The notes beneath the pieces were generated by a model. It was not told the DNA's origin. It did no database searches and saw only the letters and a list, made by a program, of their open reading frames with translations. The position numbers and the translations under genes are program-made. From assembly GCA_964449845.1 (NCBI GenBank), contig CAYVES010000004.1, forward strand, positions 1-50,068: a stretch of DNA of 50,068 nucleotides, read 5' to 3'. This document shows positions 4,054 to 40,503 of this stretch, piece by piece. The stretch comes from an uncultured Dehalococcoidia bacterium (GTDB lineage Bacteria; Chloroflexota; Dehalococcoidia; SZUA-161). Position 1 is the first letter of the stretch. The number at the start of each line of letters is the position of its first letter.

Positions 4054-4090
4054 CTGCCGGCAGCCAACTCAAGGTAGGAGGTACTGAGAA

Positions 4091-4489
4091 TTGAAATCCA
4101 ATGGCAAAGCCAAGGTCCTTCTGGTCAAGCACTGGATGGAGTGCCATGACCGGGGGGTAAAAACAGTCGTAGCGAGCCTGAGGGATGCGGGTTTCGAGGT
4201 GGTCTATATTGTGTATATGAGGCCGGAGGAGATAGTAGCCTCAGCCGTTGAGGAGGACGTGGATGTGATAGGGATGAGCTTCTCAACGGGGGCCTATGAT
4301 GCTCACGTACCAGAGGTGATGAAGCTGCTGAGAGAAAAAGGCATGGAAGACGTGATGGTGCTGGTCGGAGGCCTGATACCGGATGAGGACTTCGACTGGC
4401 TGAAGAAAGAGGGCGTCAGGGAGATATTCGGCGCCGGCTCAGACCTAAACCAGTTGATCGAGCTTGTAGGCACAGCACGCAAGGCATAA
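4091..4489 (+). CDS. Acyl-CoA mutase small subunit (cobalamin-binding Rossmann domain)
   Basis: 132 aa with a TTG start after GGTAGGAGG. Carries KVLLVKHWMECHDRG (an ExHxxG variant of the DxHxxG base-off/His-on motif), VIGMSFSTG and LVGGLIP. Confidence 0.82.
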   Translation: MKSNGKAKVLLVKHWMECHDRGVKTVVASLRDAGFEVVYIVYMRPEEIVASAVEEDVDVIGMSFSTGAYDAHVPEVMKLLREKGMEDVMVLVGGLIPDEDFDWLKKEGVREIFGAGSDLNQLIELVGTARKA

Positions 4490-4490
4490 A

Positions 4491-5426
4491 ATGATAACAA
4501 AACCGACTGTTCTTGTGCTCGGAGCAGGCGCAAGTGTGTCATACGGATTTCCGTCTGGAGAAGCGCTCCTCCGCAAAGTTCATGATGGCCTTCATCCAAG
4601 TAGCAGTTGGGGCTGGCATCAGGTTCTCGACCACTGCGGAGTGTCTCAAGCCGAATGGCAGGCTTTCCGACTCGAGCTTTATAACTCCCAGCAATCATCT
4701 GTAGACGCCTTCCTTGAATATCGCCCCGAGTTCCTCAAGGTCGGAAAGCTTGCTATGACTCTTGCCCTGGTCCCTAATGAGGATGAGAGCACGCTTTTAG
4801 GCTTTGCCTATAGGGGGTCTGGCTGTTACCAGTACCTATTTAGCAGCCTAAACGTGTCTTTCGATGACTTGGACAAGAACAGGCTCTCGATCATTACTTT
4901 CAACTATGATAGATCAATCGAGCATTACCTCTTCAAAGCTTTGAAATACACTCACAATAGACCAGATGTCGAATGTGCAGAGACGCTGAGCAAGATTCCC
5001 ATAGTCCATGTGCATGGCAGTCTTGGCGCACTTCCTTGGCAGTCACAGCAAGCTAGGGCCTATGTTCCCACGTATACCGCGGAAGATATACAATCGGCCA
5101 GCGAGAAAATCATAGTGGTTTCCGAAGGCCAAGAAACATCCCCGGAGTTTGAGCGTGCATTCAAGCTAATGGAGAAGGCAGAGAGAATCTACTTCCTTGG
5201 CTTCGGCTACAATCGAGTGAATTTACAGCGTTTGGGAGTGCACAAATTGCCCAAGCGGCCGCAGGTAATACCTAATAGACTACCTTTTAACGCTCGAGGG
5301 TTAGGAACTGCACATGGTATGGAGGATGCTGAAATGGAGGCCGTCAAATCAAGATGGGATATCTTCCTCCCCGACAATACGAGTGATTGCTTGCGTTTCC
5401 TTAGAAAATACGCACAACTCGATTGA
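4491..5426 (+). CDS. SIR2-like (SIR2_2-type) domain protein
   Basis: 311 aa. VLVLGAGASVSYGFPSG, ITFNYDRSIEHYL, VHVHGSLG and YFLGFGYNRVNL follow the order of SIR2-like domain motifs. The ATG lies 1 nt after the stop of the preceding B12-binding subunit. Confidence 0.6.
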   Translation: MITKPTVLVLGAGASVSYGFPSGEALLRKVHDGLHPSSSWGWHQVLDHCGVSQAEWQAFRLELYNSQQSSVDAFLEYRPEFLKVGKLAMTLALVPNEDESTLLGFAYRGSGCYQYLFSSLNVSFDDLDKNRLSIITFNYDRSIEHYLFKALKYTHNRPDVECAETLSKIPIVHVHGSLGALPWQSQQARAYVPTYTAEDIQSASEKIIVVSEGQETSPEFERAFKLMEKAERIYFLGFGYNRVNLQRLGVHKLPKRPQVIPNRLPFNARGLGTAHGMEDAEMEAVKSRWDIFLPDNTSDCLRFLRKYAQLD

Positions 5427-5470
5427 GTTAGGACACTGGTGTCGACTTGGCGCATAGAGCAGATTAGGCT

Positions 5471-21309: not shown

Positions 21310-22038
21310 TCACACTGACTTTATTGCCCGGTAATAGAAAGCGCTGGTGCAGTCTCCGGCCGCTTGACCATTGGGGATGGAAATCCAGTAATAAGCCTGC
21401 GTAACACGGTCTTCAGATAGCGGCACTGCCACCAAATACCAAGTGACATAGCTTGTGGTCAGGATAGCAGCGCCGCTAGTGCTGTCAGTGTCGTTATACT
21501 TGACGTTCCCAATGCTTATGGTGCCGGGGCCGCTGAAGTCTGTGCCCTTGACCTGGACATCGACATCCACATTAGTCTCACTACCGATGGTCAGGGTGAC
21601 AGCGCCCTGCGCTCCACCCCAGTTGGCCTGGTGGTCTTCCTCTCCCGGATTAACAGTACCAAATACTATACCGTCGTTGTTGTAATCAGTCACAGTGAAG
21701 GAGATAACCTCCGTAGGAGTAGGCGTCGGGGTAGGCGTTGGAGTAGGGGTAGGCGTTGGAGTAGGGGCGGCAGCCTCTATATAGGTGACACCTATCTTGC
21801 TCAGGACCGGAGTCCTCCCCGGCTCAGTGGTGCCGAGGAAGGCCTTGTACTTGATATAGCGGTCGCCATCATGCCCTGACCAGATATCAGTGCCGCTGAT
21901 CGTATAGTAGGTGCTGGCCGTCCCGTCTGGCCCCAGAAAACTCCACGTAGAGTTATCATCGTTGGTCGCGATCTGGAATTTCACCTCTGTGCCCAACACA
22001 ATGGCAGCACACCAGAGCAGTTTGCCAAGAAAGGCCAC
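21310..22038 (-). CDS. Secreted/surface protein with a (TP)9 linker
   Basis: 242 aa with a GTG start and a short hydrophobic N-terminus. The motif [14 protein letters not shown]...RYIKYKAFL is followed by [22 protein letters not shown] and a beta-rich C-terminal domain. Confidence 0.5.
   Translation of the reverse strand: [242 protein letters not shown]
21713..21772 (-). repeat. (ACN-CCN)n microsatellite-like stretch encoding (TP)9
   Basis: The plus strand reads gtaggagtaggcgtcggggtaggcgttggagtaggggtaggcgttggagtagggg. Confidence 0.85.
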
Positions 22039-22220
22039 TCGTAGCGTCCTAGGGTGGACCAGGAAAACGGGTTTGTTGGGTGACTATGTCGGTTGGGGGC
22101 GCCAACGAAACTCCGTGTTTACCCAAGAAGGCGAAAACGTCGTTGGTGTCTATCGGTTTTTCATCGTAGCTAGAAGCTCCCGATCAGTATTTGGGGAGAA
22201 GATCGATTGGGGCGGGGATT

Positions 22221-22952
22221 GTGAGGGTTCTGATCATTGAAGATGACCTGGAGACTGTTGAGTCTGTTTCCATGGCCCTGCAGATACCCTGGCCGGAGGC
22301 TGAAATACTGTCCGCTCGCCTCGGAAAGAAAGGGATAGAGGTGGCGAAGAGTGAAGCCCCCGATATCATCATCCTTGATCTGGGTCTTCCCGATATAAGC
22401 GGCTTCGAGGTGCTGGAGCGAGTACGCCTCTCCGAGCCTGTGCCCATTATTGTCCTCACTGTTAGCGGGGAGGAAGCGAGCATAGTTAGGGGACTAGGTG
22501 AGGGGGCAGACGATTACATAGTCAAGCCCTGCGGACATCTCGAACTCCTGGCACGGGTGAAGGCCAGGATACGCGATAAGGACCGTTCGGGGGGAAAGTC
22601 ACCCCTCTTCTTCGGCCCGCTGAGCTTCAATCCCTCCAGACGCAGGCTTCTGAACGGAGGAAAGGAGCTAAACCTCACTGGAATCCAGGCTCGTATCATT
22701 CATTGCTTGATGAGAAAGAGGGGTAGTGTGGCGACCTGCTCCGGCCTTGCCCGTGCCGTATGGGGTGATGATTATCCCGGGTCTACATATAGCCTCAGGG
22801 TTCATATCAGACACCTCCGCCAGAAAGTGGAAGCAGACCCCAGTCACCCGCAGCTTATTCTCACCAAACGGGGCATAGGATACTTCGTGGCAAAACCAGG
22901 TGAACCTGATCGGAGTGGACCCATGAAACACCACGCCATGGAGGAAGTATAA
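22221..22952 (+). CDS. OmpR/PhoB-family response regulator (REC + winged helix); no cognate kinase adjacent
   Basis: VRVLIIEDD, IIILDLGLPD, VLTVSG and DYIVKP are the receiver motifs. The C-terminal LTGIQARIIHCL...VHIRHLRQKVE...ILTKRGIGYFV is the wHTH. The GTG at 22221 is preferred over the TTG at 22191. Confidence 0.85.
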   Translation: MRVLIIEDDLETVESVSMALQIPWPEAEILSARLGKKGIEVAKSEAPDIIILDLGLPDISGFEVLERVRLSEPVPIIVLTVSGEEASIVRGLGEGADDYIVKPCGHLELLARVKARIRDKDRSGGKSPLFFGPLSFNPSRRRLLNGGKELNLTGIQARIIHCLMRKRGSVATCSGLARAVWGDDYPGSTYSLRVHIRHLRQKVEADPSHPQLILTKRGIGYFVAKPGEPDRSGPMKHHAMEEV

Positions 22953-23675: not shown

Positions 23676-24293
23676 ATGGGAAGCCCTATTGAAAATGTCA
23701 TCGATTCATATGAGGCGCGCGTAACGACGGTTGGCGCCCTGATGAGGCAAATGGTGGAGGTCTTGAAACGGTTTGACCTCGAGCAGGAAGAGAAGGTTAT
23801 GGAGCTGCGTGACCTCTTGGCTCGTGCCGAATCTTTGAGAAGAAAGGACTTCGACACATTGATGGCGGAAATCCGGGCTCGGCGAAGGGAAAAGGAGAAG
23901 AAGGTTGCCCATGCTCTTGACAGTTTCCTGAAGGAGCAAGAGGAGCTGGTGGCCTGGCTGAGGAAGGTCATCACCGATGGCGATATCGGGTTGGAGGAAT
24001 TCAAGGCCCTGAGCCACAGCATCCTCACCCGGCAGAAGGGGGCGCAAGGAGACCTCGGCAGAATGTTGAGAGAGCTGCACCTGGAGCACGAGGAGATGAA
24101 CATTGGTCTGCGGAAGCTTCTCCAGAAGGGGGAGCGGGTCCGCGTAGAGGACTTCAAAGCCATGATAAAGGCTATCCAGCTCAGGCAGGGAGGGAGACAG
24201 GATGAGGTAGGCAGAATGCTGGACGAGCTGTGGGGGGTTGATGAGGAGGTGGCCTCCCAGTGGCACAAGGTGATGAGTTCTATTAGAACCTAA
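23676..24293 (+). CDS. Coiled-coil protein with three ~45-aa internal repeats (candidate GvpC-like accessory protein)
   Basis: 205 aa. Three repeats: SLRRKDFDTLMAEIRARRREKE..., IGLEEFKALSHSILTRQKGAQGDLGRMLRELH and VRVEDFKAMIKAIQLRQGGRQDEVGRMLDELW. It is the first protein gene after gvpA. Confidence 0.7.
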   Translation: MGSPIENVIDSYEARVTTVGALMRQMVEVLKRFDLEQEEKVMELRDLLARAESLRRKDFDTLMAEIRARRREKEKKVAHALDSFLKEQEELVAWLRKVITDGDIGLEEFKALSHSILTRQKGAQGDLGRMLRELHLEHEEMNIGLRKLLQKGERVRVEDFKAMIKAIQLRQGGRQDEVGRMLDELWGVDEEVASQWHKVMSSIRT

Positions 24294-24650
24294 TCAAATA
24301 TCAAAGGAGGGAAGGAAGTGTCAAGGGCAAGTGATGTGAGAAGTCCAGCCCGGGACATTCCTCAAACGCACGGGGAGAGGGCCAAGCAAGTGGCGGAGAT
24401 AAAGGAAGACGTCAAGGCGCTGGTAAAGGTCATCCAGCTCGGGCAGGAGGGGAGACAGGATGAAGTAGGCAAGATGCTGGACGAGTTGTGGGGTGTTGAT
24501 CGGGAGGTGGCTATCCAGTGGCACAAGGTGATGAGTTCTATTAGAACCTAATCGAATATCAAAGGAGGGAAGGAAATGTCAAGGGCAAGTGATGTGAGAA
24601 GTCTGACCCAGGATATTGCTCAAGCGCACGACGATAGGGCTCAAGAGCAG
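24148..24650 (+). repeat. Tandem duplication with a 258-bp period (about 1.9 copies)
   Basis: tggcacaaggtgatgagttctattagaacctaatc(a/g)aatatcaaaggagggaaggaa(g/a)tgtcaagggcaagtgatgtgagaagtc occurs at 24261 and 24519. The unit spans the 3' end of the 205-aa gene, the intergenic RBS and the 5' end of the next gene. Confidence 0.88.
24318..24551 (+). CDS. Chimeric 77-aa ORF created by the 258-bp duplication
   Basis: The N-terminal MSRASDVRSPARDIPQTHGERAKQVAEIKE matches the N-terminus of 24576-25244. The C-terminal QLGQEGRQDEVGKMLDELWGVDREVAIQWHKVMSSIRT matches the C-terminus of 23676-24293. GTG start, same RBS. Confidence 0.5.
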   Translation: MSRASDVRSPARDIPQTHGERAKQVAEIKEDVKALVKVIQLGQEGRQDEVGKMLDELWGVDREVAIQWHKVMSSIRT

Positions 24651-25244
24651 GTGGAGAGGACCAGGCGGATAGCCGAGATAGGAAAGGAGACGGCTGCCCT
24701 GCTCCAACACTTCGACGAGGCTCACGTCCAGATGAGCACCCGGCTCAAGGCACAACTGGCGAAAGAGAAGCAGGGGATTACTAGGGCCGAGATGGAGAGG
24801 AAGAAGGCATGTCAGGCCGACGCAAAGGCGAGAGCGGAAGAGGCAGAGGAGAGGGCAGATGAGGTCATTAGCATCCGCTCTGAGGCTAGAGACCTTGTAG
24901 AAAGCTTCAGCAAAGATTCGGCTGAGGCCGCGGCTGCCTGGCGGGACCTGGTGGCCGCCATGCAGGCCAGAAGGGGCATGGCAGCAGGGCCCCGTCCGGC
25001 TAGGCCGCCCGTCGCTGAAGCAATAGAGGAAGAGATGCCAATGGAGGAGGTCGTCCCGGAGGAAAAGCAGAAGCTGCAGAACAGGATACTCGACTTAATC
25101 ATGGAGCACGCGGAGGGAATAAAGCTCGCCCAGATGACAGAAGCTACGGGAGAGGCAAGGGTGAAGCTGGGCAATATCACCCGGATGCTGCTCGACGAGG
25201 GCAAGATCAGGAAAGAGGGCCTGCTCTATTTCCTGGCTGAATAG
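24576..25244 (+). CDS. Coiled-coil protein with a C-terminal winged-helix-like domain
   Basis: 222 aa. It has a long charged helical region, a Pro/Ala linker, then LQNRILDLIMEHAEGIKLAQMTEATGEARVKLGNITRMLLDEGKIRKEGLLYFL, a wHTH-like pattern. Confidence 0.68.
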   Translation: MSRASDVRSLTQDIAQAHDDRAQEQVERTRRIAEIGKETAALLQHFDEAHVQMSTRLKAQLAKEKQGITRAEMERKKACQADAKARAEEAEERADEVISIRSEARDLVESFSKDSAEAAAAWRDLVAAMQARRGMAAGPRPARPPVAEAIEEEMPMEEVVPEEKQKLQNRILDLIMEHAEGIKLAQMTEATGEARVKLGNITRMLLDEGKIRKEGLLYFLAE

Positions 25245-25273
25245 GCCATTGAGAGACTTTGCTCTTCAATGGC
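25245..25273 (+). terminator. Hairpin immediately after the stop codon (weak terminator or processing-site candidate)
   Basis: GCCATTGAGAG-actttg-CTCT(T)CAATGGC. There is no adjacent U-tract; GGTTTTTCC lies 13 nt downstream. Confidence 0.3.
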
Positions 25274-25330
25274 AAACCTATAGCGGTTTTTCCCTTCGCA
25301 ACGAACAGCGATGAGGAAGGAAGACGCAAT

Positions 25331-25729
25331 ATGGCCGAAGCAGAGGTAATGGAAAAGAGTGGCGACCGGGTTGGCATCAAGTGTGGCTTCTGTCACGGAA
25401 CAGGGAAGGACCCTTTCGGGCTCCTGTCTACACTTGCTGCCTGTCAGGTATGCGGAGGCAGGGGCAGGGTCACCGTCATCGAACCGGTAGTCAAGTGGGC
25501 CTTTTGTCACGGGAGTGGGGTGTAACCCTCCCGTAGATTGACGTGCACTGTGTATAGTGGCAAGGGGGTTGTCCCCACCCCCGCTGAGGGTGAAAGGGAG
25601 GTCTGCCCCGAGTGTGGGGGCAGGGGCAAGACCCGTGGCTACTTGAATGGCCCCTGCCTCAAGTGCAAGGGCAGGGGCTTCATAGTTGCCAAGAAACTGA
25701 AAGGAGGCGATCAAATATGGCGATGGTAG
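25331..25729 (+). pseudogene. DnaJ-type zinc-finger (CxxCxGxG) protein interrupted by an in-frame TAA; possibly decaying paralog of 28161-28526
   Basis: CGFCHGTGK and CQVCGGRGR are intact. WAFCHGSG has W where C is expected. TAA at 25526 is in frame. CTVYSGKG has Y where C is expected. CPECGGRGK and CLKCKGRG are intact. Both halves are in the same frame, and the 3' end overlaps the gvpN start. Confidence 0.55.
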
Positions 25730-27942: not shown

Positions 27943-28155
27943 ATGCCAAGCGGGACTGAAGCAGATGCCCTGAAAAGGATCAGTGAGGCTGGAGGGAGGA
28001 TCGATGTGAGAGCACTGGCTCGCAAAATGGGTCGCAACACCTCCTACATGAACACCATCTGCCGTTCTCTGGGGAAAGCCGATTACATCGATTACCTCGC
28101 CTCCGGGATGTGCGTTATCACCGCTATGGGCGAAGAAGCGGTGAAGGGCAGTTAG
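27943..28155 (+). CDS. Small winged-helix-like protein
   Basis: 70 aa: LKRISEAGGRIDVRALARKMGRNTSYMNTICRSLGKADYIDYLASGMCVITAMGEEAV. This resembles a MarR/ArsR-like wHTH core. RBS GGAGGGAG. Confidence 0.5.
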   Translation: MPSGTEADALKRISEAGGRIDVRALARKMGRNTSYMNTICRSLGKADYIDYLASGMCVITAMGEEAVKGS

Positions 28156-28160
28156 GGAAA

Positions 28161-28526
28161 ATGGCAAAGCGAGTGGTTGAATGCGTCTATTGCAAGGGGA
28201 AAGGGAAACGCAGCTATCTTGAAAAAGGGGTCGGGGTTGCTCTTCGCGGAGAACCGACTTATGAGTTCGTGTGCCCGGTGTGTTCTGGCAGGCGAAAGGT
28301 AGAGGTGGAGGAGCCAGCGAGAACTTGCGGCTTCTGCGGGGGGACGGGGCTATCAAAGCAGGGCAGTCTGGCTACCTGCCCTGTGTGCAAGGGTAAGGGT
28401 ATGGTCACGGTAATAGAGCCGGTCAGTCAGTGTCCTGCTTGCCGCGGACGGGGAAGGAAGCCCGGGAGCCCCCTTTACTGTATTAGATGTAAAGGCACCG
28501 GTTTCATAACCACAGTCAGGGTATGA
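28161..28526 (+). CDS. DnaJ-type zinc-finger protein (about five CxxCxGxG-type units, one degenerate), no J domain
   Basis: 121 aa from the internal ATG. Units: CVYCKGKGK, CPVCSGRRK, CGFCGGTGL, CPVCKGKGM, CPACRGRGR and CIRCKGTGF. Confidence 0.8.
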   Translation: MAKRVVECVYCKGKGKRSYLEKGVGVALRGEPTYEFVCPVCSGRRKVEVEEPARTCGFCGGTGLSKQGSLATCPVCKGKGMVTVIEPVSQCPACRGRGRKPGSPLYCIRCKGTGFITTVRV

Positions 28527-28551: not shown

Positions 28552-29565
28552 GTGAGCAACTATATCTACGGCGTGATTCAAACCAAGAAGGGGAAGAACT
28601 TCGGCCCCATCGGGATCGGCGGTGGGGATGAAGTTTATACCATCCTCTACCTGGACCTGGCAGCGGTGGTAAGCGATTCATTACCCGCTGCGCTCACTAC
28701 TCTCCCCAAGGAGGAGGTAGTGCGCTACCTCTTTGCTCACCAAGCCGTCATTGAGAAGGTGATGAAAGAGCATACTATTATTCCCCTCAAGTTCGGGACC
28801 ACTGTCGGCAGCGCTGAAGAGGTGAAAGAGATTTTAGAGAAGGCCTATCCTAAGTTCAAAGATGCCCTCGAAGCTATGGCGGGCAAGGTGGAGTTCGATG
28901 TGGTTGTTACCTGGAATAAGGACTCTGTGTTCAAGGACATCTCGCAGGAGGAGGAAATCATAAGGTTCAAGCAAAGCCTCGGCCCCCAGCCCTCGGCAGA
29001 AGATAAGGTGAAGCTGGGGCGAATGGTCGAAGACTTTCTAGGCAAGAGGAAAGAGACGCTTGCCCCAGAGATAACCGCTGCCTTAGCCGAAGTCGCTGAG
29101 GATTTCTGCCCCCACGATACCCTGGACGCCACCATGATTATTAACACCGCATTTTTGATCCGAAAAGACAAGCAGGAGGCCTTTGACCAGAAGCTTGACG
29201 AGATAGACTGCAAATATGATGGCGGCTTGAATTTCAGGCGGGTGGGGCCCCTACCACCCTATAGCTTCAGCACCGTTGAGGTCAAGAAGGCTGAGTTTGG
29301 AGAGATTGGAAGGGCAAGAAAGATACTGGGCTTGAGCCAGGAGGCTACGCAGTCCCAGATTAAGGAGGCTTACTGGAATCTGTCCTCGGAGTATCATCCC
29401 GACAAGCACCCGGGTGATGTGGCAATCCGAAAGAGGTTTGAGGATGTTTCCTGGGCCTATGAGCTTCTCACTGAATACTGCGGAGGAGAGAGGTTCTCTT
29501 TTCGAGAAAAGGATGCCAGGGCCTTTGTTAAGGTAGACCTGGTCGGAATCGGAAGAAGAGGGTAG
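28552..29565 (+). CDS. GvpF/GvpL-family protein fused to a C-terminal J domain (HPD motif present)
   Basis: N-terminal NYIYGVIQTKKGKNFGPIGIGGGDEVYTILYLDLAAVVSD...IPLKFGT is GvpF/L. C-terminal ARKILGLSQEATQSQIKEAYWNLSSEYHPDKHPGDVAIRKRFEDVSWAYELL is a J domain. GTG start. Confidence 0.88.
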   Translation: MSNYIYGVIQTKKGKNFGPIGIGGGDEVYTILYLDLAAVVSDSLPAALTTLPKEEVVRYLFAHQAVIEKVMKEHTIIPLKFGTTVGSAEEVKEILEKAYPKFKDALEAMAGKVEFDVVVTWNKDSVFKDISQEEEIIRFKQSLGPQPSAEDKVKLGRMVEDFLGKRKETLAPEITAALAEVAEDFCPHDTLDATMIINTAFLIRKDKQEAFDQKLDEIDCKYDGGLNFRRVGPLPPYSFSTVEVKKAEFGEIGRARKILGLSQEATQSQIKEAYWNLSSEYHPDKHPGDVAIRKRFEDVSWAYELLTEYCGGERFSFREKDARAFVKVDLVGIGRRG

Positions 29566-29570
29566 CTGAA

Positions 29571-30323
29571 GTGGCTGAGGAAGGTAAATACCTCTACTGC
29601 ATTATCGCAAACAACGAAGGAAGAAACTTCGGTCCACTTGGCATCGGCGGGAGAGGTGATCCGGTTACCACCATCTCCTACAATGACCTCAGTGGGGTCA
29701 TCAGCGACGCCCCGATAAAGGAGTATGCCACCACCAGGGCGAATACCATCGCTCATGAGAAAGCTATCGAGAAAGTGATGAGCGAGGGGAATGCCGTCCT
29801 CCCGGTGAGATTCGGCACTGTGGCCGATAGCGCTCAGGAAGTGCGGGACATTCTGCGCAAGAGAGACCGGGAATTCAAAGACCTGCTCCGCGATATGGAC
29901 AACAAGGTCGAACTGGGGGTGAAGGCGCTCTGGCTTGATATGGACGCTATCTTTAACGAGATCATAGAGGAAAGTGGCGACATCAGAGTGTTGAGAAACA
30001 GGGCTGCCCGCAAGCCAACTCGAGATAGCATGATTCGGGTGGGGGAGCTGGTCAAGGAGGCCTTGGAGGAGAAGAAGGAAAGGGAGGCAGCCTCAATACT
30101 TCAGCCCCTGAACAAGATCGCCCCCGATTCCAAGGTCAATAAGCCCTTCGGCGATAGAATGTTCCTCAATGCCGCCTTCCTGGTTGACAAAGGCTGGGGA
30201 AAACAATTCGACAATGAAATCGAAACCCTGACGATGAAGTATGCCCAGAGGGCGAAGATCACCTATGTTGGGCCTGCCCCGCCCTTCAACTTCGTCAACA
30301 TAGTAATCCACTGGGAAAGATAA
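29571..30323 (+). CDS. gvpF: Gas vesicle protein GvpF/GvpL family
   Basis: 250 aa: KYLYCIIANNEGRNFGPLGIGGRGDPVTTISYNDLSGVISD...VLPVRFGTV...FNFVNI. GTG start, 5 nt after the previous stop. Confidence 0.88.
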   Translation: MAEEGKYLYCIIANNEGRNFGPLGIGGRGDPVTTISYNDLSGVISDAPIKEYATTRANTIAHEKAIEKVMSEGNAVLPVRFGTVADSAQEVRDILRKRDREFKDLLRDMDNKVELGVKALWLDMDAIFNEIIEESGDIRVLRNRAARKPTRDSMIRVGELVKEALEEKKEREAASILQPLNKIAPDSKVNKPFGDRMFLNAAFLVDKGWGKQFDNEIETLTMKYAQRAKITYVGPAPPFNFVNIVIHWER

Positions 30324-30324
30324 G

Positions 30325-30561
30325 ATGCCCATTCTAACAACCTACCTAATCTTCAAGGGTCTTCGAGGCATTGCCGGGAAGATTCGCGATATGGCTGAGG
30401 AGGAATACTACGGGGAGGACAGGATAAAGCAGCAGCTTCTGGAACTCCAGATGAGGTTGGAGATGGATGAGCTAACCGAGGAGGAGTATCTGAAAGCGGA
30501 AGCTGCCCTGATGGGAAGGTTGGAGGAAGGTCGCCAACGCGGCGTTCAAGGAGCAGTATGA
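30325..30561 (+). CDS. gvpG: Gas vesicle protein GvpG
   Basis: 78 aa: GIAGKIRDMAEEEYYGEDRIKQQLLELQMRLEMDELTEEEYLKAEAALMGRLEE, the characteristic GvpG helix pattern. Confidence 0.88.
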   Translation: MPILTTYLIFKGLRGIAGKIRDMAEEEYYGEDRIKQQLLELQMRLEMDELTEEEYLKAEAALMGRLEEGRQRGVQGAV

Positions 30562-32525
30562 TGGCCGCCTTTCTGGCCAACCCATACCTCAAGCTCATAA
30601 TCTTCGGCGGCAAGGGAGGGAGCGGCAAGACAACCTCGGCTGCGGCTGCTGCCCTCCATTTCCGTAAGCTCGACCCCGAAAAGAGGATACTGGTTATGTC
30701 CACCGACCCCGCCCACTCCCTCGGCGACAGCTTCGACATCGCTATCGGCAACAGGGTTACCCCCATAAAGGAGACCGTCTGGGGGCTGGAAGTAGACTCT
30801 AATGAGCTGTTTGAGGAATACAAAGCCAAGCACGGAGACGCGATGAAGAAGATAGCCGACCGGGGGACCTATTTTGACCAGGATGATATCGAGGACTTCT
30901 TCACCAAGACCCTCCCTGGTTTGGATGAGGTTATGGCTGTCATTCGCATCGCCGACCTGCTTAAAGCCGGGGAATATGACCTGATTATTCTGGATACCGC
31001 CCCCACCGGGCACACCCTGGTCCTCCTTTCCCTGCCTGAGGAGATGGAGAAATGGATTCATCTCATGGATATGCTCATGCAGAAACATCGCTATATGATG
31101 AGAAGGCTGGTCGGCAGATACAAAAGGGACGAGTGTGACGAGTTCATCGACAGCCAGCAAAAGGATATCAGCAGGGTGAGACAGCTCCTCAGCGATGCCA
31201 CAGCAAGCGAGTTTGTTCCGGTTACCATCCCAGAGCCGATGAGCATCGCCGAAACAGAAAGAGCCGTCAAGGCTTTGAAGGAGCACAACATTGCGGTCAA
31301 CAGCATCATCGTCAACCGGGTTATCGAGGAGCAGCGGGAGTGTTCCTTCTGCTCGGTGAGGTGGGCGGAGAAGGAAAAGTATGTGCGGGAGATTGAGCAG
31401 AAGTTCGCTCATTACAATCTGGTCAAGATGCCCCTCTTCCCCTACCAGATCCGGGGCGAGAGCTTGACCGAGTATGCCCAGGTACTCTTCGGGGAGAGAG
31501 AATATGCCCCTCCCCCCAGGGCGGAGGTCTTGCCCCAAGCCCCTCCCCTGCCCAAAGGGGGGTTCTCCGATATTCTGGAGAAGGAGCTTAGCTTCCTCAT
31601 CTTCGGGGGCAAGGGAGGGGTGGGCAAGACCTCAATTGCCGCCGCCAGCGCCCTCCATTTAGCCCGACATAAGCCGGATAGGAAGGTCCTCGCCTTCTCC
31701 ACCGACTCCGCCCATGCCCTCTCCGACAGCTTCGAGCAGCGTATTGGCAACCAAATCACCCCGATTTCGGGTATCGATAATCTCTACGCCCTGGAGATTG
31801 ATGGCACCCAGATGCTGGAGGACTTCAAGCAGGAGTATCGAGATGACATAGATGAAGCCTTTCAGAGGTTTCTCGGCACCCACATGGACATGAAGTTTGA
31901 CCGGGAGGTTCTTAAAGAGTTCTTGGCTGTCTCTCCCCCGGGCCTTGATGAGCTCATGTCTTTGCAAGAGATTACGGGTCTCATGAAGGAAGGAGACTAC
32001 AGCCTCTTTGTCCTCGACTCAGCAGCCTCGGGGCACCTGATTCGTTTTCTGGAACTCCCCCATCTGATGAGGGAGTGGCTGAAGAGCGTCTTCAGGCTGC
32101 TCATCAAGTATAGGGGGATGGTGAAGCTGAACAGGGCTACGGAGCGCCTTCTGAGCCTATCCCGGGATTTGAGAAAGATATTGGAGGTTCTCTCCGATCC
32201 CCGAGGAACGGAGTTTGTGATGATCACCATCCCTGAGGAGATGGGGGTGGCGGAGATGGAGGACCTGTCAGAATCTTTAGCCAACCTTAGAATCCCCTGC
32301 TCTCATGTAGTCATTAACATGATAATCCCTCCCACCGACTGTGGTTTCTGTGCTGCCAAGAGAAAAGAGCAGCAGGGCTATATCCAGGAAATCGAGGCAA
32401 AACTGCCTCATCACACCATCGTTCCCATACCTTTACTCCCCCATGATATCAGGGGGGTAGAGCACTTGAGCGAACTTGCCGAGATTATGTACGGGAAGGC
32501 GATGGTGAGCGCTAAGAGATCTTAG
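30558..32525 (+). CDS. Tandem (pseudo-dimeric) ArsA/Get3/TRC40-family ATPase
   Basis: 655 aa. Two P-loops (GGKGGSGKTT, GGKGGVGKTS), two STD(P/S)AH(S/A)L motifs and two switch motifs (LDTAPTGHTL, LDSAASGHLI). Each half carries a CxxC followed by a Get3-like helix (CSFCSVRWAEKEKYVREIE, CGFCAAKRKEQQGYIQEIE). The first half has a Met-rich segment, MEKWIHLMDMLMQKHRYMMRRL. ATGA overlap with the gvpG stop. Confidence 0.88.
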   Translation: MMAAFLANPYLKLIIFGGKGGSGKTTSAAAAALHFRKLDPEKRILVMSTDPAHSLGDSFDIAIGNRVTPIKETVWGLEVDSNELFEEYKAKHGDAMKKIADRGTYFDQDDIEDFFTKTLPGLDEVMAVIRIADLLKAGEYDLIILDTAPTGHTLVLLSLPEEMEKWIHLMDMLMQKHRYMMRRLVGRYKRDECDEFIDSQQKDISRVRQLLSDATASEFVPVTIPEPMSIAETERAVKALKEHNIAVNSIIVNRVIEEQRECSFCSVRWAEKEKYVREIEQKFAHYNLVKMPLFPYQIRGESLTEYAQVLFGEREYAPPPRAEVLPQAPPLPKGGFSDILEKELSFLIFGGKGGVGKTSIAAASALHLARHKPDRKVLAFSTDSAHALSDSFEQRIGNQITPISGIDNLYALEIDGTQMLEDFKQEYRDDIDEAFQRFLGTHMDMKFDREVLKEFLAVSPPGLDELMSLQEITGLMKEGDYSLFVLDSAASGHLIRFLELPHLMREWLKSVFRLLIKYRGMVKLNRATERLLSLSRDLRKILEVLSDPRGTEFVMITIPEEMGVAEMEDLSESLANLRIPCSHVVINMIIPPTDCGFCAAKRKEQQGYIQEIEAKLPHHTIVPIPLLPHDIRGVEHLSELAEIMYGKAMVSAKRS

Positions 32526-32551: not shown

Positions 32552-32926
32552 ATGGCGCTAACGGCGGAAAAGGACTCAGGCGGAACCCTGGCTGATGTCA
32601 TCGACCGGGTTCTGGACAAAGGGCTGGTAATTAACGCCGACATCACCGTGTCTCTGGCTGGGGTGGAGCTATTGGGCATTAAGATAAGGGCAGCCCTGGC
32701 TTCTTTTGAGACGGCAGCCAAGTATGGCCTGGAGTTTCCCTCGGGGACAAATTATGAGACCGCTGCCTGGCAGGAGGCTACAGTTGCCAAAGAGGAATGT
32801 CCCCAGTGTGAGAAGAGGGTGCACCTGGATGAACTCCTCAACGAGGGGTGCCCGTGGTGCGGCTGGGTCAGCGCCAAGGCCAAGGCAATCCGCGCCAAGG
32901 CAACTCCAGAGATGGAAGCCCGCTAA
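32552..32926 (+). CDS. gvpJ: GvpA/GvpJ-family protein with C-terminal zinc ribbon
   Basis: TLADVIDRVLDKGLVINADITVSLAGVELLGIKIRAALASFETAAKYG is the GvpA/J core. CPQCEKRVHLDELLNEGCPWCGW follows. Confidence 0.85.
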   Translation: MALTAEKDSGGTLADVIDRVLDKGLVINADITVSLAGVELLGIKIRAALASFETAAKYGLEFPSGTNYETAAWQEATVAKEECPQCEKRVHLDELLNEGCPWCGWVSAKAKAIRAKATPEMEAR

Positions 32927-32938
32927 GTTAGGAGCAGG

Positions 32939-33280
32939 ATGCTTTTTGAACCGACAATCCTGAAGGAAATCCATAAAGAGGCCAAGCGAGAACAAAAGAG
33001 GTCGATGGAGAAAGAAAAGACCTCTGCCTACTGGGTGAGGTGCCCCGCCTGTGGAAGGAAGGTGGCAAAAAGGCAGATTCTGACCCAAGGCTGCTGGGTT
33101 TGCGGTTGGAAGGGAACTCAGAAGGAACTCGAGCTTGCCAGATCAAAGAGAGCCAACGGGCAGAAGACCAAGACTGCCGCTGAGACGAGTTATAAGACCA
33201 GGTGTCCGGGGTGTGGTAGGCCGGTGATTACACAAGAGTTGAGAGAGAAAGGGTGCTATATCTGCGGCTGGAAGGGTTAA
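32939..33280 (+). CDS. Double zinc-ribbon protein (two copies of the CPxCG...GCxxCGW module)
   Basis: 113 aa. CPACGRKVAKRQILTQGCWVCGWKG and CPGCGRPVITQELREKGCYICGWKG. Confidence 0.7.
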   Translation: MLFEPTILKEIHKEAKREQKRSMEKEKTSAYWVRCPACGRKVAKRQILTQGCWVCGWKGTQKELELARSKRANGQKTKTAAETSYKTRCPGCGRPVITQELREKGCYICGWKG

Positions 33281-34815: not shown

Positions 34816-35142
34816 ATGCCACTTGATATCGATGAGGGCAATCTGAAGCATGGTGTGTTGGGACTGGTCATTGCGCTGGTGGAGATAATCAGGGATACCC
34901 TCAGGATCGAAGCCTTCCGGAGAATGGACGGCGGAAGCCTAGCAGATGAGGAATGTGAGCGGCTGGGAGAAGCACTGCTCGACCTGGATATGGCTATCGA
35001 GGAGATAAAAGAGGAGCAGGGCATCACCGAGGCAGTTCAGCAGGTGAGGGATGGCCTGGATGACATCGCGAGGGAAGTGGTTGACAGAATGGCAAACCCG
35101 GTGAGATGGGAGGAGGAAGCCGAAAGGCAAGGGGTGTGCTAG
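34816..35142 (+). CDS. gvpK: Gas vesicle protein GvpK
   Basis: 108 aa: GVLGLVIALVEIIRDTLRIEAFRRMDGGSLADEECERLGEALLDLDMAIEEI, the characteristic GvpK block. Confidence 0.9.
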   Translation: MPLDIDEGNLKHGVLGLVIALVEIIRDTLRIEAFRRMDGGSLADEECERLGEALLDLDMAIEEIKEEQGITEAVQQVRDGLDDIAREVVDRMANPVRWEEEAERQGVC

Positions 35143-36220: not shown

Positions 36221-36392
36221 GTGACAAGGGTTCAGGGCCTCGGAATGGCACATTCCAGGTGTCATTGCGAGGAGTGATAGCGACGCGGCACTCTAGGGCG
36301 TGGTAGGGAGGGATAGAACGATGAGATTGCTTCGCTTCGCTCGCAATGACCAGGGGGTGTGGGGCTCAGAATGACAAAGGAGAAGGGGCAAG
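36221..36392. repeat. REP/MITE-like GC-rich palindromic element, copy A
   Basis: ...ggcacattccaggtgtCATTGCGAGgagtgatagcgacgcggca...gggagggatagaacgatgagattgcttcgcttcgCTCGCAATGaccag... Inverted CATTGCGAG/CTCGCAATG arms are present. About 170 nt align to 36813-36995. Confidence 0.8.
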
Positions 36393-36393
36393 G

Positions 36394-36741
36394 ATGAGAG
36401 AGTTCCTGCGAGAGGGAGAACAGACTATCATGTCCACTCCGGGAGCCATTGATATCGGCACCCTTGACGCCCTGTGGAGAATGGGGAATCTCCACCTCAC
36501 CGATAAACGGGTGTTTTTTGAGCGCCAGGGGAAAATCCAGTTTGCCTCCTTCCTCGAGGATGTGGTGGATGTCAGGCTGGAGATGAGGAAATGGATACTG
36601 CAGCATATCAGGCAGCTTTGCATATCCTACCGAACCACACCCGATGGCCGTGTCCGGGTGGCATATGTCGCCGTCAGGTCGCCTGTGGGCTGGCAGAAGG
36701 CAATCAAGGATAGGATGACTTTCGCCTTGATAGGGACCTAG
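36394..36741 (+). CDS. Stand-alone PH/GRAM-like domain protein
   Basis: 115 aa from the ATG at 36394; upstream codons of the track ORF lie in the REP element. MGNLHLTDKRVFFERQGKIQFASFLEDVVDV resembles the two PH/GRAM-like modules of 37020-38132. Confidence 0.6.
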   Translation: MREFLREGEQTIMSTPGAIDIGTLDALWRMGNLHLTDKRVFFERQGKIQFASFLEDVVDVRLEMRKWILQHIRQLCISYRTTPDGRVRVAYVAVRSPVGWQKAIKDRMTFALIGT

Positions 36742-36812: not shown

Positions 36813-36995
36813 GAATGACAAGGGTTGAGGGCCTTGGAATGACAGAGGCATTCCAGGTGCCATTGCGAGGAGCGATAGCGACGTGGCAATCCCGGGGGTG
36901 GCAGGGAGGGATAGAACGAAGAGATTGCTTCGCTCGCAATGACGAGAGGTTGAGGGTCTCAGGATGACAGAAGGCGAAGGGCTCAGAGTGACAGC
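36813..36995. repeat. REP/MITE-like GC-rich palindromic element, copy B
   Basis: ...ggcattccaggtgcCATTGCGAGgagcgatagcgacgtggcaatcc...gggagggatagaacgaagagattgcttcgCTCGCAATGacgag... Extra related arms (gagcgaagcgaaggg / cttcggtcgcttcgctccctcagaatgac) lie at 36755-36815. Confidence 0.8.
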
Positions 36996-37019: not shown

Positions 37020-38132
37020 GTGGGAATGCAACCTACGGCGGCAACGGAATGTGGTGTAACCGATCTCTTAGAGAGGATTCTAGACAAGGGGCTGGTAATC
37101 CATGCCGACCTCATAGTCTCCCTGGCAGGGGTTCCTCTTGTCGGGGTTACTCTAAAGGCAGCCATAGCCGGGATGGAGACAATGCTGAAGTATGGCATGT
37201 TGACCGATTGGGATGAAAAGACCCGCGACTGGGCTCGAACGGAGCGGGAGGAATCTCGAAAAGCGAGCGGGGTCTTGAAAGACGGTGAAGAGGTTCTGAT
37301 CAGGATGTTCGGCTCCCACTGGTACAGCCGGGGCATCTACCGCAACTGGAGGCCGGGGCATCTCTACGTCACCGATAGGAGGCTTCTACTGTGGAGACCC
37401 TATCCCGGCGAGGTATTAACGGAGGTTCACTACGAGCTAATAAAAGGAATGGCTGTGGAGAGAAGGATAAATGTCGCCAAGAAGGAAACGGATTACCTTT
37501 ATATATTGCTCAAGGATGGCGAGGTGGTTCAACTCCATCCCACCGATGCTTCGGTGGTAAGAGAGGCTATTGAAAACAGGATGCAAACGCTGGGACTGCA
37601 ACTGGAGAGTTACCCAGCTATCCCGCCCGTTGATGAGGGGGCAGCCAGGTTCTTGACCCCTGGCGAGCAAGTTACCCACTGCGGCAGGATGTGGCACCTC
37701 GTGACCCAGCCCTCCCCGGGCGGAATCACCAGCGAGAAGTGGAAGCCGGGACACCTGTATCTAACCAACGAGAGGCTGTACTGGTATCACGACTTCGACG
37801 GCAAGGTGGACTGGGAAGCCCCCCGTGACAGCCTGGTTCATGCCACTGCTCAGTTAAAGAATCTCGGGGGTATGCTGAAGGAGAAGCAGGTCCTCAGTGT
37901 GCTGCACAAGACCGGGTCAGGTAACAGGGTAGCATGCTTCTCTGGCGTGCCGGTGGAGATGAAGGACTGGGAGGATGCCCTAGTAGATGTCATCAGGCAG
38001 CGCAGCGAACCCATGCCTGAGGACTGGGAACAGTGCCCCCAGTGCGGGGAGAAAGCGCCCCGAGAGAGGCTGGTAAAAGATGGCTGCCCGGTGTGCGGCT
38101 GGGTAAGCCCCAGGCTGACGCGAAGAGTCTAG
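37020..38132 (+). CDS. GvpA/GvpJ-family domain fused to two PH/GRAM-like domains and a C-terminal zinc ribbon
   Basis: 370 aa. VTDLLERILDKGLVIHADLIVSLAGVPLVGVTLKAAIAGMETMLKYGM is the GvpA-family core. WRPGHLYVTDRRLLLW and WKPGHLYLTNERLYWY mark two PH/GRAM-like modules. CPQCGEKAPRERLVKDGCPVCGW closes it. The start may be the ATG at 37026. Confidence 0.83.
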   Translation: MGMQPTAATECGVTDLLERILDKGLVIHADLIVSLAGVPLVGVTLKAAIAGMETMLKYGMLTDWDEKTRDWARTEREESRKASGVLKDGEEVLIRMFGSHWYSRGIYRNWRPGHLYVTDRRLLLWRPYPGEVLTEVHYELIKGMAVERRINVAKKETDYLYILLKDGEVVQLHPTDASVVREAIENRMQTLGLQLESYPAIPPVDEGAARFLTPGEQVTHCGRMWHLVTQPSPGGITSEKWKPGHLYLTNERLYWYHDFDGKVDWEAPRDSLVHATAQLKNLGGMLKEKQVLSVLHKTGSGNRVACFSGVPVEMKDWEDALVDVIRQRSEPMPEDWEQCPQCGEKAPRERLVKDGCPVCGWVSPRLTRRV

Positions 38133-38487: not shown

Positions 38488-38727
38488 TTGACAGAGATGG
38501 CAGAAGAGAAGACGACAGCAGTGACGGGTCCGTTTCACTGCCCTATGTGTCTAGCCACCACCTCGGGGAGGCATGCCTTTTGCCCTGAGTGTGGCGAGCC
38601 CCTGGATATGCAGTGTCCCAACTGCGGACTTACCTGGCGATTCTATATCAAGCATACCTTTTGCCCTTCCTGCGGACAAAGGGTTCCGGCAAAAGCTGGA
38701 CTGACCACAGCTAAAGGCTGGGGCTAG
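38488..38727 (+). CDS. Small double zinc-ribbon protein
   Basis: 79 aa. CPMC...CPEC...CPNC...CPSC gives four CxxC pairs. The start is TTG at 38488 or ATG at 38497. Confidence 0.58.
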   Translation: MTEMAEEKTTAVTGPFHCPMCLATTSGRHAFCPECGEPLDMQCPNCGLTWRFYIKHTFCPSCGQRVPAKAGLTTAKGWG

Positions 38728-38757: not shown

Positions 38758-40503
38758 ATGGCTAGAGTCATAGGGATTGATTTGGGTACTACCAACTCGG
38801 TAGCTGCCTTTATAGAGAATCGCAAGCCAAAGGTCATCCCCAATGCCGAGGGTGGTCGGCTGACCCCTTCTGTAGTGGCGTTGACCGCAGATGGGAGGCG
38901 GCTGGTGGGGCAACTGGCAAAGAGGCAGGCCGTAGCCAACCCCGAGAAAACCGTTGTCTCCATGAAGAGGCGAATGGGCTCTGACTTCAGGGTGAGGCTT
39001 GGCCGAAAGGAGTACACGCCTCAAGAGGTCTCAAGCCTTATCTTGGGTAAGATCAAAGCCGATGTCGAAAGCTACCTGGTGGAGAGGGTGGAAAAGGCGG
39101 TGATCACCGTTCCTGCCTATTTCAATGACTCTCAGCGTCAAGCCACCAAAGATGCTGGGACCATCGCTGGGTTGGATGTACTCAGGATTATTAACGAACC
39201 CACGGCCGCTGCCTTGGCCTATGGGTTGGATAAGCAGGACGCCCATAATATCCTGGTCTGGGACCTTGGCGGCGGCACGTTCGATGTCTCCATCCTGGAG
39301 CTGGGCAGGGGAATGTTTGAGGTCAAGGCGGTAAGTGGCAACACCTGGCTGGGGGGGGATGACTGGGACCAGCGTATCGTGGATTATCTGGCTGGCGAGT
39401 TCCAGAGACAGCACGGCATCGACTTGCGAGAAGACAGGATAGCCCTGCAGCGGCTGAGGGAGGCCGTGGAGAAAGCCAAGATCGAGCTTTCAAACAGCCA
39501 GGTTGCCTCCATCAAACTGACGTTTATCCTCAGTAACAACCATGATGCCGAACATCTGGATATGACACTGACCAGGGAAAGGTTCGAGGAGCTAACAGAG
39601 GATTTGCTTCAGAAGATGATTGGGCCCACCAAGCAAGCTTTGGCCGATGCCAAACTCGAGCCTGAAGATATCGATAGGGTAGTTCTGGTAGGCGGAGCTA
39701 CCAGGATGACGGCGGTGCAGCAGCTATGCCGAGCGCTCTTGCGTAAGGAGCCTTACAAGGACATCGATCCCGATGAGGTGGTGGCTATGGGCGCCGCCAT
39801 TCAAGCCGGGATGCTAAGCGGTGAACTGGAAAAGGTAACATTGCTCGATGTTACCCCCCTCTCTCTGGGCATTGAGACCAGGGGCGGGATTTTTGCCAGG
39901 ATTATTGAAAGGAATGCCAAAATTCCTACCTCCACAAGCCAGGTATTTTCCACGGCTTTCGACAACCAGCCTGAGGTGGATATTCATGTGCTGCAGGGAG
40001 AGAGGGAGATGGCTTGTTACAACATGAGCCTGGGCAGATTTCAGCTCACCGATATCCCCCTTGCTCCCCGAGGAGTGCCCCGCGTCGAGGTCGTCTTTAG
40101 TATCGACGTTAACGGCATTCTCCAGGTGTCTGCCACAGACCTATATACCGAAAATGAAGCCAGATTAAGGATTCAGTCCTCCAGGCTATCACCTGAGGAC
40201 ATCGGACGGATGATCGAAGAAGCTAAGGTCTATGCTGAGGAGGACAAGAGGCGGCGCGAAGAGGTAGAGATAGGTATTAGAGCCGACAACCTCATCTATG
40301 CTGCTGAAAAGATGGTGGAGCAGACAGGGGATAGATTGGATGACACCCAGCTTGCGGAAACAGAGGCAAAGGTATTAGCGGTGAAGTCCGCTCTAGCCAG
40401 TGGAGATACTGAGGAGATCAGGTTAAGAACTGAAGACCTACAAGAAGTGGTCCGGGAGTTATACACGGAGAAGGAGGAGCTTACCAGTGCAAGGGCGACT
40501 TGA
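38758..40503 (+). CDS. Hsp70 (DnaK-family) chaperone, compact 581-aa form
   Basis: [72 protein letters not shown] and a full beta-sandwich SBD ([13 protein letters not shown]...[19 protein letters not shown]). The helical lid is short. Confidence 0.95.

Follow-up and report, generated by a model that had tools for sequence, protein, structure and literature searches.

A Get3-like tandem ATPase encoded in the gas-vesicle gene cluster of an uncultured Dehalococcoidia bacterium

The DNA analyzed here, called the window, is a stretch of 50,068 nucleotides from an uncultured Dehalococcoidia bacterium (GenBank assembly GCA_964449845.1, contig CAYVES010000004.1, forward strand). Pfam and NCBIfam scans showed that it contains a long co-directional cluster of gas-vesicle (gvp) genes. 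Inside this cluster lies the gene for a 655-amino-acid protein with two Get3/ArsA-type halves, referred to below as the ATPase. The evidence supports an ATPase that is Get3-like, that is not ArsA, and that is tied to gas vesicles.

The ATPase was assigned to the open reading frame (ORF) at 30558 to 32525 of the window's ORF list. Its ATG at 30558 overlaps the TGA of gvpG (30559 to 30561) as ATGA. A second candidate ATG is found at 30561. An AAGGAG motif lies 7 nucleotides before it and only 4 nucleotides before the first ATG. In the database the gene is called with 654 amino acids (P0001), implying the second ATG. Because of this spacing and this gene call, the ATPase may start at the second ATG, with a 1-nucleotide TGATG overlap. 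The tight coupling of gvpG and the ATPase holds for either start codon. The features of the gene are as follows.

30325 to 30561, forward strand: gvpG, directly upstream, with a stop codon that overlaps the ATPase start (PF05120, E = 2.2e-16)
30548 to 30563, forward strand: Shine-Dalgarno-like AAGGAG (30548 to 30553) and the two candidate ATGs (30558 and 30561), from sequence reading and the 654-amino-acid database call
30558 to 32525, forward strand: tandem (pseudodimeric) Get3/ArsA-fold ATPase, 655 amino acids (ORF list, PF02374, TIGR00345, AlphaFold2 model)
30558 to 31499, forward strand: N-terminal Get3-like half, residues 1 to 314 (aligned to MtGet3 residues 16 to 322 with 194.7 bits; Foldseek per half against 3zq6)
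30606 to 30635, forward strand: P-loop 1, GGKGGSGKTT, residues 17 to 26 (core residues invariant in 28/28 sequences)
30699 to 30719, forward strand: switch I of half 1, STDPAHS, residues 48 to 54, with catalytic Asp50 (motif reading, half alignment)
30993 to 31016, forward strand: switch II of half 1, DTAPTGHT, residues 146 to 153 (invariant in 28/28 sequences)
31044 to 31109, forward strand: Met-rich amphipathic helix of the helical subdomain (putatively client binding, by Get3 homology), residues 163 to 184 (6 Met in 22 residues)
31122 to 31145, forward strand: acidic motif KRDECDEF in a loop of the helical subdomain, residues 189 to 196 (D191 nearly invariant, D194 invariant)
31341 to 31397, forward strand: CxxC 1, CSFC (C262 and C265; residues 262 to 265), and the charged helix after it (aligned with the Get3 CxxC; invariant in 28/28)
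31500 to 31562, forward strand: Pro-rich linker between the halves, residues 315 to 335 (coil with lower pLDDT in the AlphaFold2 model)
31563 to 32525, forward strand: C-terminal Get3-like half, residues 336 to 655 (Pfam, PDB sequence search, half alignment)
31605 to 31634, forward strand: P-loop 2, GGKGGVGKTS, residues 350 to 359 (motif reading, alignment of 28 sequences)
31698 to 31718, forward strand: switch I of half 2, STDSAHA, residues 381 to 387, with Asp383 (motif reading, half alignment)
32016 to 32039, forward strand: divergent switch II of half 2, DSAASGHL, residues 487 to 494 (D487, G492 and H493 invariant; the variant is typical of the family)
32340 to 32396, forward strand: CxxC 2, CGFC (C595 and C598; residues 595 to 598), and the charged helix after it (invariant in 28/28; aligned with the Get3 CxxC)

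The Pfam search found the ArsA_ATPase domain in two stretches of the protein (PF02374, E = 8.5e-144). The ATPase scored 480 bits against TIGR00345 (GET3_arsA_TRC40), for which the cutoff is 135, and this is far beyond chance. Its AlphaFold2 model had a pLDDT of 84.1 and a pTM of 0.82. In the half alignment and in the 28 sequences, each half still has its P-loop, its switch I Asp and its switch II, along with an A-loop-like PL..IRG. The Met-rich 22-mer compares with a family mean of 4.3 Met per 22 residues and a whole-protein Met background of 3.1%. The ATPase contains six cysteines (C193, C262, C265, C581, C595 and C598), and the four CxxC cysteines are the only ones invariant in the 28 relatives. 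The initial annotation had described two full ArsA/Get3-type halves, quoted the motifs of their P-loops and of switches I and II, and pointed to a CxxC with a charged helix in each half, a Met-rich helix in the first half and a start codon overlapping the gvpG stop. All of these were recovered at the residues listed above, with the reservation that the real start may be the ATG at 30561.

A ParA/MinD-like ATPase that spaces or anchors gas vesicles would belong to the same SIMIBI class. The ATPase has the deviant Walker A of that class, and it gave weak Pfam and NCBIfam matches to CbiA, ParA and MinD. These scores fell far below the cutoffs (41.6 bits against 180 for ParA_partition; about 31 against 202 to 213 for MinD), and a ParA/MinD identity was ruled out on family scores. 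The fused halves remove the ATP-dependent dimerization switch of ParA-type systems, and the Get3-specific helical subdomain and CxxC are present. We regard such a role as very unlikely.

In a phmmer search of the PDB, CrArsA1, the tandem Get3 ArsA1 of Chlamydomonas (227 bits), MtGet3 (193 bits), MjGet3 (186 bits) and ScGet3 (157 bits) all outscored E. coli ArsA (128 bits). In the yeast protein the zinc-site CKRC is C285/C288 in the standard numbering. Both CxxC motifs of the ATPase, with the charged helix that follows, align residue for residue with CKRC of ScGet3 (CKRCQARW...), CEFC of MtGet3 and CDFC of MjGet3. ArsA and CrArsA1 have no Cys at this position in the half alignment. In Get3, this CxxC is described as the site that binds zinc where the two subunits meet (PMC10248533). 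Judged by the alignment, the CxxC motifs of the ATPase appear homologous to this zinc-site motif.

The helical subdomain after switch II was compared by length, fraction of ILMFVW and Met content. It was 65 residues, 0.35 and 5.7% in the gvp-linked N half, and 70 residues, 0.33 and 6.3% in the Get3 references. In the gvp-linked C half it was 58 residues, 0.42 and 2.4%. ArsA A1 and A2 had 53 and 47 residues, fractions of 0.22 and 0.31, and Met contents of 2.7% and 5.3%. By these measures the N-half helical subdomain resembles that of Get3 in length, hydrophobicity and Met content.

Foldseek with each half placed MtGet3 (3zq6) first, with a TMt of 0.83 to 0.85 and 35 to 36% identity. With the whole chain, closed ArsA ranked first (TMq 0.70, 22% identity). 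Because per-half identity and TM score favor archaeal Get3, the whole-chain rank of ArsA is attributed to a shared single-chain pseudodimer and not to kinship.

A genuine arsenite-pump ArsA that merely lies beside gvp genes would explain the tandem architecture, this whole-chain match (TMq 0.70) and the automatic label "arsenite-transporting ATPase" on relatives. The ATPase fell short of both ArsA equivalog models, with 225 bits against a cutoff of 650 for TIGR04291 and 266 against 800 for NF041417. L007, a genuine ArsA encoded in an arsRDABC operon and used as reference, carries cysteines at 26, 113, 172 and 422. The half-by-half alignment showed no Cys in the ATPase at the positions of C113, C172 and C422, which read LPGLD, a non-Cys residue and PPGLD, and none at these positions in any gvp-linked relative examined. 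The CxxC-less tandem relatives adjacent to arsD, mostly with arsR too, keep PC(T/V)x, TCIG/TCLG and SPC(T/A)E. Identity of the ATPase to ArsA is only 21 to 27% (23 to 27% for plasmid ArsA proteins). No ars genes, and thus no arsD, arsB or arsR neighbors, were found in the window's cluster, where acr3 was not searched for. Bona fide ArsA was ruled out by the score below the hidden Markov model (HMM) cutoff, the missing cysteine triad, the gene neighborhood and the low sequence identity, and the chance that the ATPase is an arsenite-pump subunit is practically nil. Both the absence of an ars context within the cluster and the Get3-like rather than ArsA character had been proposed from the initial reading, and both held. 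Either "arsenite-transporting ATPase" or "ArsA family ATPase" is the automatic label of most named gvp-linked relatives. Evidence from the cysteines and the genomic context suggests that these labels are a systematic misannotation.

Relatives of the ATPase were retrieved from 86 loci, with 26 to 91% identity to it. A genome-contig scan with the single protein gave 3 loci, and the breadth came from a metagenome scan with the family alignment. HMMs derived from the Gvp proteins of the window served to score the flanks, and the counts by class refer to loci with at least 3 kb of flank. Tandem proteins with CxxC had at least two Gvp families nearby in 37/37 loci and ars genes in 0/37. They had gvpG directly upstream in 21 of the 37 and on either side in 24, with Hsp20 in 24/37 and Cdc48 in 22/37. 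Tandem proteins without CxxC (n = 9) had at least two Gvp families in one locus, and gvpG directly upstream in one. They had ars genes in 7/9 (arsD, mostly with arsR), and Hsp20 and Cdc48 in 0/9 each. In the ars-linked tandem proteins, none of the three metalloid cysteines is missing. Despite phylogenetically non-independent counts, the dichotomy between gvp-linked CxxC and ars-linked cysteine triad is clean.

Counted over the full set of loci, gvpG was the closest annotated gene within 400 nucleotides upstream in 31, and a GvpA/J/M gene was the closest one downstream in 19. The recurrent order is gvpF-gvpG-ATPase-gvpJ/M-gvpK-gvpA-like. Spacing between the stop codon of gvpG and the start of the ATPase mostly falls between -4 and +22 nucleotides. 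Independent gene calls and Pfam showed the same arrangement in Desantisbacteria, in Actinomycetota and in L089 and L090. The sub-clade of the last two has named members that include Verrucomicrobiota and Pseudomonadota, and these two loci have gene overlaps on the gvpJ side too. In this second sub-clade, 106/113 tandem proteins have CxxC in both halves and 0 have the arsenic triad. The initial annotation had said in advance that retained metalloid cysteines, or a linkage not conserved in related gvp clusters, would count against it. The cysteines are absent, the linkage is present in all 37 tandem CxxC relatives and gvpG is directly upstream in most. These outcomes favored the Get3-like, gvp-linked reading.

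Some clusters encode two tandem ATPase paralogues. They are found in L006 (10001 to 11938 and 14121 to 16427) and L012 (9983 to 11974 and 16782 to 18776). The second paralogue of L006 has 768 amino acids, and an overlapping gvpG-like gene of its own comes after it. L090 also encodes, at 245 to 2923 on the forward strand, an 892-amino-acid Cdc48 with a GvpL_GvpF match (PF06386), an apparent Cdc48-GvpF fusion.

Other gvp clusters contain a single-domain form of about 312 amino acids, usually with one CxxC, in a fixed Hsp20-ATPase-Cdc48 module. This module was seen in L054, L056, L058 to L065, L069, L071, L073, L077 and L082. In tandem-form clusters Hsp20 and Cdc48 stay adjacent, with no ATPase between them. 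In a rough neighbor-joining tree without support values, the single-domain form and both tandem halves make one clade, and the single-domain form is closest to the N half. The clade lies apart from ArsA, the Get3 references and CrArsA1; its place outside the canonical Get3 clade is provisional. Since the halves of CrArsA1 cluster apart from the gvp-linked clade in this rough tree, the CrArsA1 duplication was probably independent of the gvp-linked tandem.

GvpG-ATPase fusions were sought among the related loci as Rosetta-stone evidence, and none was found. L034 contains, at 3177 to 5459 on the forward strand, a 760-amino-acid ATPase ORF that has lost both CxxC and continues in frame into a GvpJ-like domain (residues 680 to 751, E = 1.5e-28). 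It is possibly a natural Rosetta-stone case, or else the product of a lost stop codon or an assembly error.

The window's cluster begins with gvpA, three paralogous coiled-coil ORFs and gvpN. Then come a protein with a DnaJ-type zinc finger, a fusion of gvpF to a J-domain, gvpF, gvpG, the ATPase and a gvpJ-like gene that carries a zinc ribbon. After these lie more zinc-ribbon ORFs, Hsp20/GvpH-like proteins, gvpK, gvpL, a gvpM-like gene that has PH-like domains, and gvpO. The cluster ends with DnaK, a helix-turn-helix-Hsp20 protein above the PF17886 (ArsA_HSP20) cutoff and Cdc48. The neighbors that bear most closely on the ATPase are as follows.

28552 to 30323, forward strand: gvpF-J-domain fusion and gvpF, upstream (PF06386 and PF00226)
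32552 to 32926, forward strand: GvpJ-like GvpA-family protein with a C-terminal zinc ribbon, directly downstream, a candidate client (PF00741, E = 2.7e-17; halo_gas_GvpJ, E = 1e-28)
34816 to 35142, forward strand: gvpK (PF05121, E = 9.8e-17)

A GvpF with a C-terminal DnaJ J-domain (PF06386 and PF00226) is encoded at 28552 to 29565 (forward strand) of the window, at 7201 to 8232 of L004 and at 5537 to 6562 of L006. This fusion recurs in phyla far apart from one another, and its companions in the window are DnaK (38758 to 40503) and the DnaJ-type CXXCXGXG zinc-finger protein (28110 to 28526). The co-occurrence suggests recruitment of Hsp70 to GvpF-bound clients.

The GvpM-like protein (37020 to 38132, forward strand) matches PF00741 at its N-terminus and halo_gas_GvpM with E = 5e-24. 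It carries an extension of about 290 amino acids with weak PH/GRAM-like matches and a C-terminal zinc ribbon, which is unusual for the GvpA family. The gap from gvpL to this gene is otherwise non-coding and contains a 131-amino-acid ORF (36346 to 36741). On either side of the ORF lies one copy of a direct repeat some 170 nucleotides long (36222 to 36389 and 36816 to 36982); the copies are 79 to 90% identical and about 595 nucleotides apart.

The three ORFs right after gvpA (23676 to 24293, 24318 to 24551 and 24576 to 25244, forward strand) have swapped modules in common. The first and second end with a common ...GRQDEVG.MLDELWGVD.EVA.QWHKVMSSIRT, and the second and third begin with a common MSRASDVRS.... 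None of the three gave a Pfam match; GvpC-like surface proteins are one possibility. The gene immediately upstream of gvpA (22191 to 22952, forward strand) was recognized by eye as an OmpR-type response regulator. A (TP)n-repeat protein (21310 to 22038) was also seen by eye, on the strand opposite to gvpA.

Zinc ribbons are numerous in the cluster (32552 to 32926, 32939 to 33280, 38488 to 38727, 25259 to 25525 and 25538 to 25729, all on the forward strand). One is at the C-terminus of the GvpJ-like protein, and several are small stand-alone double zinc-ribbon ORFs. Similar double zinc-ribbon ORFs are found in L004 and L006. A cluster so unusually rich in zinc-ribbon ORFs raises the idea that the ATPase delivers zinc to their products, and its CxxC pairs could bind metal. 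The SIMIBI metallochaperones that are known fall into different families (G3E GTPases and Mrp/NBP35), and the CxxC with its flanking helix is, by alignment, the likely homologue of a structural zinc site in Get3. The zinc-ribbon ORFs are also inconstant neighbors, unlike gvpG, gvpJ and gvpK. We give zinc delivery hardly any weight.

By analogy with Get3, we consider it somewhat more probable than not that the ATPase is a gas-vesicle-dedicated, ATP-driven chaperone or hand-over factor of the Get3 type for hydrophobic GvpA-family proteins, working with GvpG. The two fused halves would form an intramolecular pseudodimer. The two CxxC motifs together would bind one zinc ion as a hinge between the halves, as expected from Get3 homology. 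The same homology predicts that ATP at the two intact nucleotide sites closes the halves. On closure, the two helical subdomains would come together as a hydrophobic groove rich in Met. This groove may hold the hydrophobic core of GvpJ or GvpM, and possibly GvpA, in the cytoplasm. The client would then be let go at the nascent vesicle. GvpG, co-translated with the ATPase, would be its partner, as adaptor, receptor or co-client. The most hydrophobic 19-mers of the cluster are those of GvpM (2.05), GvpA (1.74), GvpJ (1.69) and GvpK (1.58), and the cores of GvpM, GvpA and GvpJ are likely clients because they include its most hydrophobic segments. The chaperone-rich setting of the cluster supports this function (J-domain-GvpF fusion, DnaK, Hsp20/GvpH-like proteins with ArsA_HSP20 matches, and Cdc48). 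Interaction work has proposed GvpF and GvpG as chaperones of GvpA, with contacts to GvpJ/S and GvpK (PMC11445434).

A more elaborate version is tentative. The ATPase and GvpG might form a GET-like targeting pathway to the lipid-free gas-vesicle shell, with the GvpJ/M/A core in the groove. GvpG might bind the shell through its N-terminal amphipathic helix and, with its acidic coiled coil, serve as a Get1/2-like receptor that opens the ATPase at the growth site. The single-domain form between Hsp20 and Cdc48 might be a quality-control arm in related clusters. We regard this version as a conjecture, less likely than not.

Several points weigh against the chaperone function. No tail-anchored protein with a C-terminal transmembrane helix was found among the cluster proteins, so the topology of the client would be unlike that of every established Get3 client. 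The C-half helical subdomain is shorter (58 residues) and Met-poor, though more hydrophobic (0.42). A minority of relatives have lost one or both CxxC (L034, and 7/113 in the second sub-clade). The neighbor-joining tree is rough and lacks support values, and the locus counts are not phylogenetically independent. The ATPase-GvpJ fusion was seen once (L034) and could be an assembly artifact. To our knowledge, the well-studied gvp clusters of B. megaterium and haloarchaea have no such ATPase. The gvpABCNJKFGVW genes of Anabaena PCC 7120 alone gave vesicles in E. coli, though irregular ones (PMC7204071). Because gas vesicles form without it, the ATPase would be accessory and not core.

The same coupling to gvpG and to gvpJ/K, whose products are thought to act at initiation, and the two intact nucleotide sites could instead point to an assembly motor. 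It would act with GvpG at the vesicle and drive the insertion or rearrangement of GvpA-family subunits at the seam or nucleating bicone with ATP. This comes near the proposal of Castillo & Saier (2010) that the ATPase "energises a biogenic step", distinct from GvpN (PMC2963123). Get3-fold ATPases are generally slow-hydrolysis switches and not force generators. The retained hydrophobic, Met-rich helical subdomain points to client capture, and GvpN and Cdc48 of the same cluster already provide AAA+ motor functions. A motor is rather unlikely.

The invariant CxxC pairs also bear on a redox- or stress-switched holdase. Once its CxxC/zinc site is oxidized, the ATPase would become a general chaperone that works without ATP and shields vesicle proteins under stress. 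In yeast Get3, oxidation of this site reportedly yields an ATP-independent general chaperone. The CXXC has been implicated in the oxidation-regulated chaperone function of Get3 (PMC10248533), and Hsp20, DnaK and Cdc48 co-occur with the ATPase. Many of the hosts are apparently anaerobes (Dehalococcoidia-like metagenome-assembled genomes), which makes oxidative switching less obvious. The strict conservation of both catalytic sites argues against an ATP-independent main role, and the specific gvpG/J/K synteny argues against a general chaperone. We find this switch improbable.

The very hydrophobic shell proteins of gas vesicles have to stay soluble and enter the growing gas-facing wall. Gas vesicles are engineered as acoustic reporter genes, a use that is hampered in practice when they are toxic or misassemble in foreign hosts. 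If the chaperone function is correct, a dedicated Get3-type chaperone widespread in environmental gvp clusters would offer an assembly factor open to testing and might serve as a helper in heterologous expression. The clients of the Get3 fold would then no longer be limited to tail-anchored membrane proteins. By analogy, gvp-linked GvpA-family proteins may reasonably be proposed as a new Get3 client class; the gvp linkage itself has been in print since 2010. For tandem proteins, the results give a sorting rule. CxxC in both halves without C113/C172/C422 indicates a gvp-linked protein, and the reverse indicates an ars-linked one. The rule could correct many annotations of the type "arsenite-transporting ATPase".

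The link between two-domain ArsA homologues and gvp genes, which underlies the new client class suggested in the initial annotation, is not itself new. Castillo & Saier (2010) described ArsA homologues of about 637 amino acids with two domains in gvp operons with hsp20 from several phyla, and reported that C113/C172/C422 are not conserved in them (PMC2963123). Their article never mentions the CxxC, zinc or Get3 (PMC2963123). A 2017 co-evolution study of cyanobacteria grouped one ArsA with eight Gvp proteins (PMC5464585). A 2023 Get3 phylogeny names ArsA, Get3a, Get3b/c and Get3d clades and no gvp-linked clade (PMC10248533). The literature searched contained no publication joining gas vesicles with Get3 or applying the CxxC/groove reading to gas vesicles, and no experimental work on this ATPase. 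New in the present analysis are the rule of CxxC versus cysteine triad, the conserved F-G-ATPase-J-K module and the single-domain Hsp20-ATPase-Cdc48 module.

Among known systems, ArsA of E. coli and Enterobacter (1f48; L007) shares the tandem ArsA/Get3 fold with the ATPase (whole-chain TMq 0.62 to 0.70). It has the C113/C172/C422 site and no CxxC, and the ATPase is the reverse. Its helical subdomain is short and less hydrophobic, and it has arsD/arsB neighbors, unlike the ATPase. CrArsA1 (5zme), the top PDB match, is also a fused pseudodimer of two Get3-like halves. It differs by longer inserts and the lack of CxxC in either half.

Yeast and human Get3/TRC40 share with the ATPase the fold, the aligned CxxC, a Met-rich subdomain that binds clients in Get3, and the catalytic Asp. 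No tail-anchored client and no equivalents of Get1/2 or Get4/5 were identified in the window's cluster. Get3/TRC40 targets a membrane, whereas the target of the ATPase would be a lipid-free protein shell. The best single-domain matches are archaeal Get3 (3zq6 of M. thermautotrophicus and 3ug6 of M. jannaschii), with 186 to 193 bits, TM scores of 0.83 to 0.85 and 32 to 36% identity. They share the P-loop, the switches, the A-loop, the CxFC position and charged helix and, roughly, the length and hydrophobicity of the helical subdomain. Archaeal Get3 is a single-domain homodimer, whereas the ATPase is a fused pseudodimer with diverged halves (DSAASGH and a shorter helical subdomain in the C half). 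Its genomic context differs, and the ATPase groups in a clade with gvp-linked forms.

The ATPase matches by description Clusters 4 and 6 of Castillo & Saier, whose members have about 640 amino acids, two domains, gvpF/G/J/K/L/M/N and hsp20 neighbors and no ars genes. Their cyanobacterial Cluster 4 carries W/F where ArsA has C113. For this reason it may be a sub-lineage other than that of the Chloroflexota-type ATPase, in a comparison made by description only. Castillo & Saier described only two-domain homologues as gvp-linked, and the single-domain form is additional here.

Like the ATPase, Get3d of plants and cyanobacteria is a Get3 homologue of the bacterial type; its client chamber is hydrophobic (PMC10248533), as predicted for the groove of the ATPase. 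It carries a fused alpha-crystallin domain (PF17886). The ATPase clusters instead encode separate Hsp20 proteins that match PF17886, and in related clusters such an Hsp20 adjoins the single-domain ATPase, an arrangement that may be compared with the Get3d fusion. Get3d lacks the CXXC helix and zinc, and its catalytic residues are often degenerate (PMC10248533), whereas the ATPase retains both the CxxC and the catalytic residues.

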